58,433 bases of DNA from positions 1-58,433 of the forward strand of contig JBBIKA010000003.1 in assembly GCA_037445695.1 (NCBI GenBank), in the 5' to 3' direction. The translations under genes and the position numbers were made by a program. Below are positions 1,475 through 9,941 of this stretch, one piece after another (positions within the stretch are counted from its first letter, which is position 1; every line of letters begins with the position of its first letter). The DNA comes from Chloroflexota bacterium (GTDB lineage: Bacteria; Chloroflexota; Anaerolineae; CG2-30-64-16). The notes under the pieces were generated by a model. It did no database searches, was not told the DNA's origin, and worked only from the letters and a program-made list of their open reading frames with translations.

Positions 1475-3429
1475 TCATGGCAATCGCGCGCTATCTGTAG
1501 CCGGGTGGAGTCGGCCGGCCGCGCCGCTGATAGGGAGGTGGAGGATGGCGGCTTTCCGACGGTTGGCGCCCTCGGCCTGGGCCATGCGACGCTGGGCCAG
1601 CCGGCGTCGCGCGGCGCTCATGCCTTCGCAGCAGACCTCGCGCAGCCGGGGGTGGGTGAATTCGTAGCTGTCTTCCCCCGTCTCGCGCAGGATGCGGCGA
1701 CGCCACAGCTCGTCCAGCGCCTGCACCAGGCTCGCCTCATCGCCATCATGGGCGCGCGCCAGGAGCTCGTAGCGACACGGCCGGCCCGCGACCGCGATCA
1801 GCTCAGCCAGGGCCAGCGCGTCGGCCGAGAGCTGGCCCAGCCGCGCCTGGAGCACCTGTTGGAGCTTGGGCGGCAGCGGCAGGCCGGCCGCCGGCGCAGC
1901 CGCGCCGTGCGCGGCGTCCCACGTCCCTGAACGCTCCAGCCCCGCCCGCACCATCTCCACCACGAAGAGCGGGTTGCCTTCGGAGCCCTGGTAGAGCGGC
2001 CCGGCCAGGTCCGGCGGCAGCGACCGGCTGGCGACCTGGCTTGCCAGCGCCATCGTCTCAGCGCTGCTCAGCCCGGCCAGCTCGATCTCCGTCACCAGGC
2101 CGCGGCGGCGCAGGCTGTGCAGCAGCTGCGCCGACGGTTGATCGGCGCTCAGGTCCTCGGAACGGGCCGTGGCGACGATCAGCAGCCGGCCACGCGGGTC
2201 GAAGCGCAGCAGGAAGTGGAGCCAGTCCAGGGTGTCGCGGTCGCACCATGGCAGATCATCGAGCACCAACAGGATCGGCCGCGGATCGGCCGCGAGCCCG
2301 CGGCCCCAGGCCAGCACCGCGTGCGCCAGCGCCTCGAAGAGCCGGTAGCGTTCCCAGGGCGCGTCCGTCTCGACCGGGCCCGGGCCGACATCGGGCAACG
2401 GGCGGGCCAGTTCGCGGCGCCAGGGGCCGGGCAGTGGCGGCAGCGGCCGGCTGCGCAGCCAGGCGACGATCGGCGCGTAAGGCAGGTTGCCCTCGGCGGC
2501 ATAACAGGCGGCGTGCGCAGCCGGGTAGCCCTGACGATCGGCCCAGGTCAACAGCTCCTCGGCCAGCCGCGTCTTGCCGATGCCCACATCGCCGGTAATG
2601 AGGACGAGCTGGGGGCGGCCGCCGGCTGCGGATTGCCAGAGCGCCAGGAGTTGCGCCCACTCCTGCCCGCGGCCGATCAGCGGCAGGTCCGGGCCGGCCG
2701 GCGCCAACGCCGTGGCCGGCGGCCGGCCGCCGCGCAGCGCTTGCGCGTACAACTGTTGGGTGGCCGGCGCCGGCTCAACGCCCAGCTCGCGGCGCAGGAC
2801 GGCCGCGCAGGCGTGGTAAGCGCGCAGCGCGCCCGCGCGGTCGCCGATGAGCAGCTGCAGGCGCATCAGGCTGCGGCAGTGCACTTCGTTCAACGGCTCC
2901 TCTCGCGCCAGCCGTTGCGCGTATTCCAGCGCGGCCCGATAATCGCGCGCTTCCTCCGCTTGCTGCGTCAGACGATCCAACGCGGAGATGTAGAGGCAGC
3001 GCAGCCGTTCGCGTTCGGGCACGATCCAATCGGCGTAGCATTCGGGCAGCAGGTCGCCGCGGTAGAGCGCAACCGCCTCGCGCAGCGCGCCGGCCTGAAG
3101 CGCAGCTTCGAACTCTGCAACGTCCAGGCTGTACGGGACATGCGGCTCCCAGAACAGGGCCTGATGCTCGCAGTGCAGGCAACAGTCGGCGTGGGGAAGG
3201 GCCTGGCGCAGGAGATGCACGAGGTTGCGCAGATTGGTGCGGGCCTGGTCTTCGGTCGAGTCGGGCCCAGCAGGAAGGCGAGATGTTGCCGCGGCTGCGG
3301 CACGCCCCGATGGAGGATCAGATAGGCCAGCAAGGCGCGCAGCCGCGGGGAATGGACGGCGGTCACGGGGACGCCATCGTAGGTCAGGCAGAATTCGCCC
3401 AACAGTTGGACGCGCAACCCCGATGTCAC
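1475..3429 (-). pseudogene. SARP (OmpR-type wHTH + BTAD) / AAA ATPase regulator, interrupted by a 1-nt frameshift near 3265-3270
   Basis: The N-terminus MTSGLRVQLLGEFCLTYDGVPV...QHLAFLL is in the frame of ORF 2968..3429. The continuation PDSTEDQARTNLRNLVHLLRQALP, the BTAD region (LYRGDLLPE, RAYHACAAVLRRELGVEP) and the P-loop GDVGIGKTRL are in the frame of ORF 1475..3481. The span is 1955 nt, which is 3n-1. Confidence 0.8.
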
Positions 3430-3624
3430 ACGCTCCCCCGATCGGTGAAGGGGCTTTATCCTCTACGACGTATTTTACCACTTTGCGATACGCTTGCCCA
3501 CGACTTAGGTCTCACTTGTGGGATCGGCTTGAGGCACCCCTGGCCCCGAAAAGCGACGCGCAGGCCATGCGGGCAGATGAAGTGTTTTTTAGATTTGCAG
3601 CGTTGTTTTCGGGCAGGGCCATCT

Positions 3625-3741: not shown

Positions 3742-4101
3742 ATGGAGATCGCTCCGATGGACAAAGTACGGATCCTGATCCTTCTGCTGCTGGGCGTGTC
3801 GGCGATCGCCGCCCTGACGGCAAGCCTGTCCGCCCTGGCCACGCCGGTCGGGTACGCCCAGGCCCCTGACCAACCCCTGGCCCCGGCCGCCTGCGTCGCG
3901 CTGGCCGGCCCCGGCCAGATCCCCGCGCCCACCGTCGTCACCTTCGACGAGCTGCCCGCGGGGACGAGCACGGCAACTTCTACCAGCGCACCCACGGCGT
4001 CTCCTTCGAGGAGGGCCGCACGCGCAGGTTCGGGGAACAATTGGTGGCTTTGCAGAGGGCAGTTGGCCGCGACCAGACCTAAACGACAGGATGACGCATA
4101 A
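3742..4101 (+). CDS. Small secreted hypothetical protein (signal peptide); the 3' half may be frame-disturbed
   Basis: The N-terminus MDKVRILILLLLGVSAIAALTASLSALA looks like a signal peptide. After ...TVVTFDELPAG the listed frame becomes S/T/A/R-rich. A +1 frame reads DEHGNFYQRTHGVSFEEG, which looks more protein-like. Confidence 0.35.
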   Translation: MEIAPMDKVRILILLLLGVSAIAALTASLSALATPVGYAQAPDQPLAPAACVALAGPGQIPAPTVVTFDELPAGTSTATSTSAPTASPSRRAARAGSGNNWWLCRGQLAATRPKRQDDA

Positions 4102-4214: not shown

Positions 4215-4667
4215 ATGTTCCACTCAAAAACGCTCCGCATGATCGTCATCGTCGGTGTGCTGTTCCTGCTCGGTTTCGGTGTCGCGTGGCTGGGCCAGGC
4301 AGATCGGGCGGTCGCGGGCACGTCGCAAACGACCGCCCCTGCCCCGGCCCTCCAGGCCCCGGATAGCAACCCCACCGACCTGGCGGCACCGGATGCCTCG
4401 ACCTGGGTGACCTGCACGCCGAACAACGTCGCCGCCTTCTCGAATCGCATCCACGTGCGTTGTAACGAATCCTACAGCAACATCCGCTACTTCGCTTACC
4501 CGACGACCAACGCGGCGGCTGCTGCCCGCTATCTCAGCCTGCTCACGTCCGCCCAGGTTGCTGGCCATACCCTGAGCATCCTGTATGATCCGGCGGACAC
4601 CAGTGGGACGTCCTACGGTTGCCTGGCCACCGATTGCCGCCCCATCCAGGCAGTTGAGCTTCACTGA
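4215..4667 (+). CDS. Small secreted or membrane-anchored Cys-containing hypothetical protein
   Basis: ATG at 4215 is preceded by AAAGGAGG (4199-4206). An N-terminal hydrophobic segment (MIVIVGVLFLLGFGVAWLG) is followed by a P/A/T linker and a roughly 100-aa domain with 4 Cys. The gene is co-oriented directly upstream of the metalloprotease. Confidence 0.6.
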   Translation: MFHSKTLRMIVIVGVLFLLGFGVAWLGQADRAVAGTSQTTAPAPALQAPDSNPTDLAAPDASTWVTCTPNNVAAFSNRIHVRCNESYSNIRYFAYPTTNAAAAARYLSLLTSAQVAGHTLSILYDPADTSGTSYGCLATDCRPIQAVELH

Positions 4668-4724
4668 GGTGCGCCATGAACAGCTCGGTCAAAAGTGGCC
4701 TTCCCGTCCCCCTGACCCTTCAAA

Positions 4725-6620
4725 TTGGGGGGAGCGGGGGGCGGAATGGAGGCCAGGAGGGCGGCGGGCAAGCTGCCGCTCATGTTGCTGGCCTTGCTGG
4801 CGGGCTGGCTGGTGGGGCAGGTCGCCCTCGGTCCACTCGCGGCCCAGGCGGCGGTGTATTGGGCGGCTGCCAACGGTCAACCCCTGGCGCTGGGCGTGCG
4901 CAATCGCGACATCACGGTGTGCTTCGTGGGCAATGCCGTCAGCGCCCGCCCCGACCGGGTGCGACAGATTGTGACCTATATCCAGGACTTCGAGGCGGCG
5001 GCCAACATCCGCTTCTATACGTTGGCGGGCACGCGCCTGTCCAGCGCCGCGCAGCAGAACATCGCCTCCTTGCAATGTACGCCGCCAACCCAGCAGGGTA
5101 ACGGCTACGCCTACTACGCCGGTGACATCCGGGTGGTCATTCCCAACACCGATGTGGACGCCACAGCGCCGGTGCCGGGCAACGGCTGCGAGAACGACAG
5201 CATGACCTCGGCCCCTGACGTGGCCTCCTGGTCTTCGAGCAGGCTGGACGTCTTCTGGCGGGGCTGGGACAACACCCTGCGGCATAAGTGGGGCTATCTG
5301 GATGGCAGCACCTGGCGTTGGAGCGTCAACGAAAAGCTGGGCGGCAGCCTGACTTCAGGGCCGGGCGTGGCTTCCTGGGCCAATAACCGACTGGCCGTCT
5401 TCGTACGGGGCACCGACAACCTGCGCCACAAGTGGTCCACCGACGGCGGCACCAACTGGAGCGGCTGGGAGGACCTGGGCGGCACCCTGACCTCCGGGCC
5501 TGGCGCGGCCGCCTGGGACGTCAACCGCCTGGCGGTGTTCGTCCGGGGGCAGGACAACGGGCTATGGATGAGGCGCTGGAACGGCAGCAGTTGGGACGCC
5601 TGGCAGAGCCTGGACGGCACGTTGACGGCGGACCCGGATGCGGCCTCCTGGGGCACCAATCGCCTGGATGTCTTCGTGCGCTGGAGCGACAACACCCTGC
5701 GCCATCGGTGGTCCACCGACGGTGGCGCCACCTGGAGCGGCTGGGAGAACCTGGGGGGCAGCCTGGCCTCCGGCCCCGCCGTGGTAGCACGGATGGTCAA
5801 CCGGCTAGACGTGTTTGCGCAGGGTGGCAACACCAGCCTCTGGTATCGCGAATGGGACGGCAGTGCCTGGAGCAACTGGGCCGACGTTGGCGACAACGCC
5901 GGCTGGGGGAGCTGGTCCAGTGGACCCTGGAACCTGAACGACCCCAACCACCGGGCCTGCCTGTACAACCTGAAGCTGGGGGACGACCCCTGGAACGCGA
6001 CGCCCTACCGGAACCACACGTTGCACGAGTTCGGCCACGCCCTGGGCCTGAGCCACGAGCACCAGCGGCCCGACGCCAACGCCGGCTGCACGGAGCCAGG
6101 CTACGGCGGAGGCGGCACTGCCGGGCTGATGACCCCGTACGACCGCAACTCCGTGATGCACTACAAGTTCGCTTCCTGCGGCATCAACGGCAACTACGAC
6201 CACACCGGCCTGTCGGCCTGGGACCGGCTGGCTCTGCACATCATGTACCCGGAGGACGTGCGGGTGGCCGAGTTCACGGGCAAGACGGTGGTGAAGGTGG
6301 GCGAACCGCTGGTCCTGCGTTCCACCCTGACCCAGCAGGGCGCCACCGCGTTTGCGCTCAAGAACTTCCAATGGAAAGTGGATGGGGTGGTCAAGAGCAC
6401 CGGCGACACGCTGAACATCACCTTCGCCGGCGCCGGCACCCACACGGTCCAGTTCACCTATCGGGATTTTCTGGACCGCGATTACAGTTCCACCTTCACC
6501 GCCCGCGTGCTGAGCCCCGCCGCCTTCAACCAGCAGATGGCAGCCGTGGAACAGGCGCAGTTGCTGATGATGACGTCCAGCCTTCCCGCTCATATCTATC
6601 TGCCGACGGTTGTACGCTGA
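4725..6620 (+). CDS. Secreted astacin-like (metzincin) zinc metalloprotease with five inserted W-rich beta-propeller blade repeats and a C-terminal Ig/PKD-like domain
   Basis: Zinc motif HEFGHALGLSHEHQRPD (about 6024-6075) and Met-turn SVMHY. Five roughly 47-aa repeats with consensus G.LTSGP...SW..NRLDVFVRG.DN.LRHKW....G..WSGWE lie at about 5202-5925. The signal-like N-terminus is LPLMLLALLAGWLVG. An alternative start is ATG 4746. Confidence 0.85.
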   Translation: MGGAGGGMEARRAAGKLPLMLLALLAGWLVGQVALGPLAAQAAVYWAAANGQPLALGVRNRDITVCFVGNAVSARPDRVRQIVTYIQDFEAAANIRFYTLAGTRLSSAAQQNIASLQCTPPTQQGNGYAYYAGDIRVVIPNTDVDATAPVPGNGCENDSMTSAPDVASWSSSRLDVFWRGWDNTLRHKWGYLDGSTWRWSVNEKLGGSLTSGPGVASWANNRLAVFVRGTDNLRHKWSTDGGTNWSGWEDLGGTLTSGPGAAAWDVNRLAVFVRGQDNGLWMRRWNGSSWDAWQSLDGTLTADPDAASWGTNRLDVFVRWSDNTLRHRWSTDGGATWSGWENLGGSLASGPAVVARMVNRLDVFAQGGNTSLWYREWDGSAWSNWADVGDNAGWGSWSSGPWNLNDPNHRACLYNLKLGDDPWNATPYRNHTLHEFGHALGLSHEHQRPDANAGCTEPGYGGGGTAGLMTPYDRNSVMHYKFASCGINGNYDHTGLSAWDRLALHIMYPEDVRVAEFTGKTVVKVGEPLVLRSTLTQQGATAFALKNFQWKVDGVVKSTGDTLNITFAGAGTHTVQFTYRDFLDRDYSSTFTARVLSPAAFNQQMAAVEQAQLLMMTSSLPAHIYLPTVVR

Positions 6621-8126: not shown

Positions 8127-9941
8127 ATGAAGCGGGCCGGCCCCCTCGCCGGCAATGATGATAAACCGTCCATAGATTGGACAACGAAAGTGGGCATGTA
8201 TGTCGGCGAAAACCTTGTATCAGATCAGACGTTAGGGGCGCGTCGCATGTTTCTTTCCGACCGGACCGGCAAATTACGCGACACCAGGCCGCGTCAGCTC
8301 GCTTCTCTACGCGCGCAATTGGCGCAACTGCGTTATGTGCCGCGTGCGCTGCGCCTGGTGTGGGCGGCCGCGCCGGGCTGGACGGTTGCGTCGGTCGCTC
8401 TAGTGGCCGTGCAAGGCGTGTTGCCGGTCCTTACCGTCTATCTGACGCGCGAGGTCGTCAACGCGCTGGTGGCCGTGATCGGGGGCGCCGGGGGCGCGGC
8501 CGACCTGAGGTCGGCCGCGCTGATGGGAACGCTGTTCGGCCTGACGCTGCTGGCCGGCGAGCTGCTGGGCAGCGTGGCCGGCTATGTGCGCATCGCCCTG
8601 GCCGAACGGGTGCAAGACCACATGAACGGCCTGATCCACGCCCAGGCCGTGGCGCTGGATCTGAACTTCTACGAATCGCCCATCTACTACGATCAGCTTC
8701 AGCGCGCCAGCGTAGACGCCATTGACCGGCCGCTGGGCCTGCTGGATAGTTTGAGCAGCCTGTTGCAGAGCGCCATCACCCTGGCGGCCATGGCCGGCGT
8801 GCTGTTCACCTTCGCCTGGTGGCTGCCGCTGGTGCTGCTGGGGGGCACACTGCCCGCGCTCTGGGTGGCGCTGCGCACCACGCTGGCCTTTCACCGCTGG
8901 CGGTTAGCCAACACGATCAACCAGCGCCGGCTGATCTACTATCACCGCGGCCTCACCTCGCATCTGCTTGCCGCGGAGATTCGCCTCTTCAACCTGGGCG
9001 ACCATTTCCGTCAGGCGCATCACCGGCTGCGCGGCCGGCTGCGCGGCGAGCGCCTGGCCCTTGCGCGGGGGTAGATGCTGGCCCAGGCCGACGACCTCTT
9101 CGCCTTCCTCGACCTGCGACCGCAGCTTGCCGACCCGCCGCGGCCGACGCCCATGCCCAACGGCTTGCAGCGGGAGATCCGCTTGACCGACGTGACCTTC
9201 TGCTATCCCGACAGCAGCCGGCCCGCGCTGACCGACTTCAACTTGACCATTCCGGCCGGCCAGATCGTGGCAGTGGTAGGCGAGAACGGCGCAGGGAAGA
9301 GCACCTTGCTCAAGCTGCTCTGCCGCTTCTACGACCCGCAGGCCGGCGCGATCACCTGGGATGGCGTGGACCTGCGCGACCTGGCCCAGGCCGACCTGCG
9401 CCGGCGCATCACCGTGCTCTTCCAGCAGCCCGCGCCCTATCACGAGACCGCCTATGACAACATCGCCTTCGGGGACCTGGCGGCCCGGCCTGATCGGCCG
9501 CGCATCGAGCAGGCCGCAGCTGCCGCGGCCGCCGACGAGATCATCCGCTGCCTGCCCGAAGGCTACGACACGGTGCTGGGCCGCTGGTTCGGCCACACCG
9601 ATCTGAGCGTGGGCGAGTGGCAGCGCCTGGCGCTGGCCCGCGCCTTCGTGCGCCAGGCCGACCTGGTGATTCTGGACGAGCCGACCAGCGCTATGGACAG
9701 TTGGGCCGAGGCCGCGTGGATGGCTCGCTTTCGCGAGCTGGTGGCCGGCCGCACCGCGCTGATCATCACCCACCGCTTCACCACCGCCATGCAGGCGGAT
9801 GTGATCCATGTGATGCACGAGGGCCGCGTGGTGGAATCGGGCACGCACGCCGAACTGGTGGCCCTGGGCGGCCGCTACGCTGCGTCGTGGCGGCTGCAGA
9901 TGCGCGAAACGGGCGCAGCCGCACCGGTGGGCGCGAAATGA
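8127..9941 (+). pseudogene. Fused ABC exporter (TMD+NBD) with an in-frame TAG at 9072-9074 and apparently missing TM5-TM6
   Basis: ORFs 8127..9074 (TM1-TM4 plus ICL2, ending ...RGRLRGERLALARG*) and 9075..9941 (LFAFLDLRP..., Walker A GENGAGKST, LSVGEWQR signature, Walker B LVILDEPTS) are in the same frame. Only the TAG separates them. No hydrophobic TM5/TM6 segment lies between ICL2 and the NBD. Confidence 0.7.

Follow-up and report, generated by a model that had tools for sequence, protein, structure and literature searches.

A putative secreted astacin-like protease of Chloroflexota with a PLL-type beta-propeller inside its catalytic domain

A propeller inserted in the catalytic domain

The stretch of DNA analysed here, hereafter the window, comprises 58,433 nucleotides (nt) of contig JBBIKA010000003.1 (positions 1 to 58,433, forward strand) from the Chloroflexota bacterium assembly GCA_037445695.1, and harbors at 4746–6620 on the + strand a protease gene whose catalytic domain is interrupted by a PLL-type beta-propeller of 237 amino acids (5190–5900). 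The propeller is a true insertion in the protease catalytic domain, because about 65 insert-less homologues of 350–400 amino acids have both catalytic parts joined by a short loop. Taken as a whole, the locus is best explained, and quite probably, as encoding a secreted astacin-like endopeptidase with a nested lectin-type propeller together with a small co-encoded partner.

Two kinds of relatives, long and short, were recovered by a database search with the window protease. The long relatives form 21 clusters of 609–818 amino acids with 42–83% identity and cover nearly the whole query, and the short relatives, of 347–420 amino acids with 50–70% identity, cover only about 37% of it. The short homologues carry the N-terminal part of the catalytic domain (N part; motifs Y..W, ITVCF.G, RPDRV, ANIRF, GDIRV and PG.GC) contiguous with the C-terminal part (C part; SWS, CxYNLKLG, HTLHEFGHALG.xHEH and SVMHY). 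The loop joining the two parts measures 4–21 amino acids in 65 insert-less clusters, and the insert at the same point measures 274–302 amino acids in 21 clusters and 237 in the window protein. Many residues of the N part are invariant across an alignment of 87 sequences, which puts its conservation on a par with that of the zinc site.

In a profile–profile comparison (hhalign), the family profile was aligned to a myroilysin-family profile, built from a myroilysin-like Pseudomonas/Bacteroidota set, with 99.4% probability and an E value of 9e-22 over 177 columns, from residue 30 to residue 251. The alignment path runs through the mature N-terminus (LYW), beta1 (ISVCF), helix A and beta2 (RPDRV..FEYAANIRF) and beta3 (GDIRV), and then through the zinc motif and the Met-turn to a terminal YPED, and its single large gap coincides with PG.GC...GWGSWS, which is the insertion site. 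With the strands assigned from this alignment and from known metzincin topology, the insertion point would be the beta3–beta4 loop of the metzincin N-subdomain. The edge strand beta4 lines the upper rim of the metzincin active-site cleft. AlphaFold2 (AF2) models of the nested protein and of the insert-less homologue P0020 display an identical order of secondary-structure elements, with a mean predicted local distance difference test score (pLDDT) of 89.5 for both and a predicted template-modelling score (pTM) of 0.83 and 0.82, respectively. A pLDDT of 95–98 is reached in both catalytic parts of the two models, and in the nested protein the full range is 87–98 in the N part (95–98 from residue 50) and 80–97 in the rest of the catalytic domain.

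A preliminary description of this DNA had proposed that the propeller is nested rather than appended, with residues 40–158 as the astacin N-subdomain in front of it, and had called for structure prediction. The insert-less homologues, the hhalign path, the element order of the AF2 models and the match of the insert to PLL lectins all agree on the nesting, and the assignment of residues 40–158 held, these residues lying in register with the myroilysin N-subdomain. The placement has to be corrected in one respect: the insert lies inside the N-subdomain and not between this subdomain and the active-site helix, with about 40 amino acids of the N-subdomain (GWGSWS...CLYNLKLG...) coming after it.

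Organization of the protease gene

The frame is uninterrupted from TTG 4725 or ATG 4746 to 6620 (stop 6618–6620), yielding 624 amino acids from ATG 4746, as in the database gene call for this protease (P0003), or 631 from the alternative start TTG 4725; all features described in this section are on the + strand. As read from the sequence, a Sec-type signal peptide, MEARRAAGKLPLMLLALLAGWLVGQVALGPLAAQA, is predicted at 4746–4850 with cleavage between AQA and AVYW. AF2 gives a helix at residues 5–27 followed by a low-confidence segment, and [ASG][LV]YW directly after the signal peptide is kept in all homologues. Export by the twin-arginine translocation (Tat) pathway, considered for the two arginines in the signal peptide, was ruled out, since an FLK-type motif is missing and the arginine pair does not occur in close relatives.

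The first part of the catalytic N-subdomain (4851–5189; beta1, helix A, beta2 and beta3) is delimited by hhalign, AF2 and many invariant residues and ends in VPGNGC, the sequence ...VPGNGC|ENDS across this boundary being located at 5172–5201. The inserted propeller (5190–5900), delimited by sequence, Foldseek and insert lengths, is followed by the remaining catalytic domain (5901–6260; profile search, hhalign and AF2), consisting of beta4 (GWGSWS), beta5 (CLYNLKLG), the active-site helix, the Met-turn and a C-terminal helix. The astacin signature HExxHxxGxxHExxRxD and an SxMHY Met-turn had been noted beforehand, and both are present: the zinc-binding motif HEFGHALGLSHEHQRPD at 6024–6074 matches the astacin motif exactly, and SVMHY, conserved family-wide, is located at 6150–6164. 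In the 87-sequence alignment the H, E, H, G, H and E of the zinc motif and the S and Y of the Met-turn are invariant, and the V and M of the Met-turn are at least 90% conserved. The window protease retains every catalytic residue and the full set of six conserved cysteines.

Relationship to myroilysin and astacin

The window enzyme belongs, by sequence, with the myroilysin/astacin-type metzincins. When the PDB was searched with a profile of 65 insert-less members, the 19 best matches were all astacin-family chains, including myroilysin (4.5e-9), hatching enzymes, astacin, meprins, TLL-1 and BMP-1 (4e-4), and other metzincin families matched only at E values above 0.1. The myroilysin-family profile in turn gives a full-length match to solved myroilysin with an E value of 1.2e-62. 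Pfam PF01400 (Astacin) gives 26.1 bits against a gathering cut-off of 22.5, with only residues 432–452 (the active-site helix) aligned, and other bacterial HExxH proteins found in the locus scan are as far from Pfam Astacin as the window protease.

In common with myroilysin and astacin (MEROPS M12A; PF01400; PDB 5ZJK/5GWD and 1AST), the window protease exhibits the SxMHY Met-turn and a zinc motif that contains the family-specific Glu, and the profile homology spans the whole catalytic domain. It differs in having a whole propeller in the beta3–beta4 loop, and its family differs in having extra helices between beta2 and beta3, six conserved cysteines and an obligate small partner gene, and in being without a prosegment and with neither an Asp nor a Cys switch. 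The family profile aligns straight after the AxA signal cleavage site, and the myroilysin profile begins with about 64 additional columns, including the Cys-switch region, that are without counterpart in the window family. Enzymes of the window family would thus be made without a prosegment, the mature N-terminus being produced directly by signal peptidase.

The PLL-type propeller

The 237 amino acids between GNGC and GWGSWS consist of the ENDS linker and five tandem repeats of 49, 46, 45, 47 and 46 amino acids, corresponding to blade 1 (5202–5348), blade 2 (5349–5486), blade 3 (5487–5621), blade 4 (5622–5762) and blade 5 (5763–5900), all on the + strand. The five tandem repeats of about 47 amino acids and their resemblance to PLL-type blades, as first described, are borne out: with phmmer the insert matches solved PLL/PHL lectins with E values of 7.9e-88 (8Q7U), 1.4e-78 (5C9L) and down to 1.5e-49, with Foldseek at an E value of 1.9e-19, probability 1.0 and 33–40% identity, and the precomputed Pfam annotation of P0003 contains PF26607. 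Tandem Repeats Finder reported nothing on the blades, because they are only 62–75% identical in DNA. The AF2 model has five four-stranded blades with a pLDDT of about 76–97, and the Trp-rich motif is kept in every blade.

PLL/PHL lectins are seven-bladed and bind fucose and O-methylated sugars between the blades through Trp stacking (PMC6943638). The window propeller shares the Trp-rich W-motif blades of about 47 amino acids with the Photorhabdus PLL/PHL/PLL2-5 lectins (PF26607 Beta-prop_PLL / DUF346) at 36–40% identity, but it has five blades, and its relatives about six in each of 21 other nested clusters, against the seven of PLL; it is also nested in an enzyme, whereas PLL is a free-standing oligomeric lectin. 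The template-modelling (TM) score to seven-bladed PLL is only 0.36–0.39 in Foldseek, and the best global fit is the six-bladed FleA at 0.55. In precomputed Pfam annotations the PLL propeller is fused elsewhere to M23, SpoIID, matrixin with a peptidoglycan-binding domain, GH18 chitinase, ricin, tyrosinase and kumamolisin, and because of these fusion partners the sequences suggest that the propeller is a portable module for cell-wall or other glycan binding.

The five-blade state and its six-blade ancestor

The orthologue P0004, in locus L001, is 83% identical to the window protease and has six blades alternating between two subtypes. Compared with P0004, the window protein is missing 46 codons, with the front of blade 2 joined to the back of blade 3, and a CGACAAC microhomology stands on both sides of the junction (5409–5432, + strand, between GTDN and LRHK). 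On this comparison the five-blade state is derived from a six-blade ancestor by a recent in-frame microhomology deletion of one blade (138 nt). The deletion is exactly in register, and the resulting hybrid blade keeps the normal motif.

A conserved partner gene upstream of the protease

A gene for a small secreted or membrane-tethered protein of 150 amino acids with four cysteines, consisting of a signal or anchor, a Pro/Ala/Thr linker and a core of about 85 amino acids, lies directly upstream (4215–4667, + strand) and is preceded by a strong AAGGAGG ribosome-binding site. Its earlier designation as a possible partner is strengthened by synteny, which strongly supports the view that the product of 4215–4667 is a real partner of the protease. 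With two partner queries in tblastn, 46 of the 47 loci of the family were found to have a partner homologue directly upstream of the protease and in the same orientation, its end located about 10–500 nt from the protease start, with a 4-nt overlap in L005. These loci belong to at least ten phyla (Chloroflexota, Acidobacteriota, Myxococcota, Cyanobacteriota, Thermodesulfobacteriota, Rhodothermota, Pseudomonadota, Actinomycetota, Bdellovibrionota and Gemmatimonadota), and no partner occurs at the HExxH loci L048–L086, which are more distant.

At 90% identity the partner family falls into 651 clusters. Of the 120 partner clusters listed, none has a Pfam domain, nearly all of the named ones are called hypothetical, and a profile of 28 partner sequences gave no match to Pfam and none to the PDB (best E value 0.18, to YmgD, judged to be chance). 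Invariant positions of the core are C, R, C, R, A, C, D, C and R, and a GC...DCR motif is among them. In this genome the partner exhibits an uncleaved-looking anchor followed by the linker.

Distribution and phylogeny

The nested form is rare, with 22 clusters in 5.8 billion proteins. The search for the same architecture in other genomes, recommended at the outset, revealed the 21 clusters beyond the window. The family profile is matched at E values of 1e-30 or below by 89 of 1.84 billion cluster representatives, and in a set of one genome per GTDB species about 41 family loci were found, of which only two, from a Chloroflexota metagenome-assembled genome (MAG) and a Thermoanaerobaculia MAG, contain the insert. 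A maximum-likelihood tree computed on the protease core without the insert columns places the window protease and P0004 beside a clade of 17 insert-less Chloroflexi proteins. The tree requires at least three changes of insert state (five on the best tree), and a single insert-bearing clade was not rejected by the approximately unbiased (AU) test (p 0.33). The insert may thus have been gained once and then lost in some lineages, or gained several times.

Other insertions and additions were observed in the family outside the window. In P0244, P0246 and P0264 a second site, after the zinc motif (HEH.R.DV) and before the Met-turn, is occupied by one or two helix-hairpin-helix (HHH_5) modules, and the family member P0252 has an appended ice-binding-like adhesive domain.

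Alternative explanations

Several observations weigh against the reading of an active astacin-like enzyme with a nested lectin, and they have to be set against the evidence above. If residues 40–158 formed an N-terminal domain with no relation to the protease, and only a propeller and a truncated protease came after it, the confinement of the Pfam Astacin match to the active-site helix would be expected, and so would the outcome of a PDB search with a profile of the N part alone, which gave no meaningful match (best ribosomal uS12, E value 0.03, judged to be chance). On the protease fold Foldseek is uninformative rather than contrary: the top 50 PDB matches of the nested model are propeller hits only and hence give no view of it, and for P0020, compared with PDB and BFVD, PKD and Ig domains fill the lists with no astacin in the top 50, the sole metzincin being an ascovirus matrix metalloproteinase (MMP; 3e-3). 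This arrangement is nevertheless already contradicted, and very improbable, given the 99.4% register of the N part with the myroilysin N-subdomain, the contiguity of both protease parts in the insert-less homologues and a conservation of the N part that equals that of the zinc site. Equally improbable is an assembly artefact, in which a chimeric join or a repeat collapse made the insert or the five-blade state. The genome is indeed an assembly of 356 contigs, but the nested architecture is present in 21 independent clusters from NCBI, JGI, ENA and Logan and in two GTDB species genomes, and this recurrence in independent data sets makes it secure; collapse is unlikely because no exact internal repeat is longer than 16 nt, a length below usual assembler k-mers, among blades of 62–75% DNA identity. 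The insert itself might be no lectin but a protein–protein or structural module, for example one that caps the active site or that provides a docking surface for a peptide substrate, an envelope protein or the partner. Hydrophobic pockets of the PLL family can hold peptide termini in crystals (PMC6943638), and the ratio of nonsynonymous to synonymous substitutions (dN/dS) against P0004 is 0.52 in the propeller, indicating freer evolution than in the other parts. We regard such a role as unlikely in view of the 36–40% identity to sugar-binding PLL/PHL lectins with a Trp-rich motif in each blade, the many glycan- or cell-wall-active enzymes fused to the same propeller, and the partner gene, which is equally conserved beside insert-less proteases, so that the propeller is not needed to bind the partner.

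Other unfavorable observations concern the window copy itself, which could be decaying and probably non-functional (misfolding-prone with one blade missing, poorly translated with the ancestral start out of frame, and unregulated with its SARP/BTAD activator frameshifted) while the architecture is real in the relatives. One blade has been deleted at a microhomology junction, the five-blade form is restricted to this contig with all 21 other nested clusters having about six blades, and the pLDDT drops to 76–80 around residues 241–260, just past the junction. The ancestral start, ATG 4676 (MNSxVK in the relatives, here MNSSVK...), which together with a GAGGTG site directly after the partner stop is conserved in L001, L003 and L009, is out of frame with the protease body here, the region 4676–4760 having insertions and deletions in a G-rich stretch; the same N-terminal extension is in frame in L009. 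The divergent SARP/BTAD-AAA regulator (1475–3481, - strand) is frameshifted, with its winged helix-turn-helix N-terminus in an open reading frame (ORF) at 2968–3429 and the rest in the ORF 1475–3481, and in the downstream ABC gene the ORFs 8127–9074 and 9075–9941 share one frame and are parted only by the stop 9072–9074. On the other side, the frame of 624 amino acids is open with its catalytic residues and the six cysteines intact, and ATG 4746, within the extra N-terminal segment, restores a normal, textbook signal peptide. The deletion is in register and leaves a hybrid blade with a normal motif, AF2 still gives five four-stranded blades, and the dN/dS is 0.22 in the catalytic N part, 0.19 in the catalytic C part and 0.17 in the PKD-like domain. 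Decay of the window copy therefore appears to us rather unlikely, though it is the most serious of these alternatives.

Discussion

The nested protease is a rare variant of known protein types. Metzincins usually gain substrate selectivity from domains appended at their ends, and only for a few, the gelatinases and pappalysin, are modules known within the catalytic domain itself. In the gelatinases MMP-2 and MMP-9 these are three fibronectin type II modules, and in pappalysin-1 they are LNR modules. As in these enzymes, a surface loop of the metzincin domain close to the cleft holds in the window protease a module that may target the substrate, but the window protease belongs to a different metzincin family and uses a different loop (in MMPs the modules precede the active-site helix), and in place of small disulfide modules there is a propeller of 240–300 amino acids. 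No description of a nested module in an astacin-type enzyme was found, and propellers are not mentioned in a 2023 review of astacins (PMC9848320).

Under the favored reading, the gene product would be a secreted astacin-like (myroilysin-like) zinc endopeptidase whose two protease parts fold together around the propeller, the adjacent N- and C-termini of the latter being compatible with loop insertion. The propeller may be an internal targeting device by which the cleft is kept against glycan-decorated substrates, probably microbial cell-envelope material, because the same propeller is fused elsewhere to peptidoglycan and chitin hydrolases. The window copy would then represent a five-blade allele that arose from a six-blade ancestor by the 138-nt deletion. 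In a protease without a prosegment, the small exported protein that is always co-encoded is the obvious candidate for latency or immunity. The partner, membrane-tethered in this genome, may act as an inhibitor or as a prodomain in trans, keeping the enzyme latent or shielding the producer, and its anchor and linker are as expected for a protein guarding the surface of the producer; a substrate or a folding chaperone is also possible.

Serralysins are paired with a neighboring small exported inhibitor, a plausible protector of the producer. As in the serralysin–inhibitor pairs (AprA/AprI, PrtC/Inh and SmaPI), a small exported protein is encoded beside a metzincin, but adjacency is all that is common: the window partner is without sequence or profile similarity to any solved inhibitor, and in the window locus the small gene comes first. 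The catalytic domain of the family seems to tolerate several kinds of targeting module. A broader proposal, which we advance tentatively and with some leaning against it, is an undescribed cross-phylum two-gene module in which a prodomain-less astacin-like protease, with loops that accept interchangeable targeting modules, would be combined with a disulfide-bonded inhibitor or prodomain in trans of about 85 amino acids carrying the invariant GC...DCR.

A lectin propeller at the loop leading to the substrate-binding edge strand would constitute a natural design for a glycan-guided protease, and the nested architecture is a possible template for engineering glycoprotein-specific proteases. The constant pairing of a protease lacking a prosegment with a small secreted protein points to an undescribed control of astacin-like enzymes and gives about 650 clusters annotated as "hypothetical protein" a testable role. 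The conserved partner and the versatility of the protease family in loop insertion are most worth following up.

C-terminal domain, C-terminal tag and flanking genes

The catalytic domain is followed by a PKD-like beta-sandwich (6261–6515, + strand; residues 506–590), in which AF2 places beta strands at 510–589 with a pLDDT of 92–98. The tail had been described as Ig/PKD-like, and its PKD-like nature is confirmed, the equivalent domain of P0020 matching the PKD domain of collagenase ColG in Foldseek with a TM score of 0.76 and an E value of 5.6e-6. The protein ends (6516–6617, + strand) with a helix at residues 591–611 and a disordered tail of pLDDT below 50, terminating in IYLPTVVR (6594–6617).

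Twenty large ORFs of the genome (188–2118 amino acids), located on contigs C18, C28, C33, C96, C112, C134, C139 and others, end in [YF]LP[LVATI][ILVM]x[RK], compared with 0.33 expected, and 20 of the 36 occurrences of this motif in the genome are C-terminal. The NCBIfam models of the YLP-box, a putative sorting motif (NF050076 sort_motif_YLP and NF053834 ultrashort_CTERM), match two other tails of the genome, and the window tail IYLPTVVR was not reported by these two hidden Markov models. It resembles the YLP-box ([YF]LP[LV][IV]x[RK]) and occupies the extreme C-terminus, with Thr where Leu or Val is usual. A YLP-box-like tail of this kind may route the enzyme to the Chloroflexota envelope or retain it there. 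In Myxococcota and cyanobacteria, the insert-less homologues terminate in ...LPLL instead.

In L001 and L003, too, the cassette has a BTAD/AAA_16 regulator beside it, called as two genes of 384 and 193 amino acids in L001 and intact with 1189 amino acids in L003. Between the regulator and the partner gene, the window contains an ORF of 119 amino acids (3742–4101, + strand) with a signal-peptide-like start (MEIAPMDKVRILILLLLGVSAIAALTA...), and a gene of 79 amino acids occupies the equivalent place in L003.

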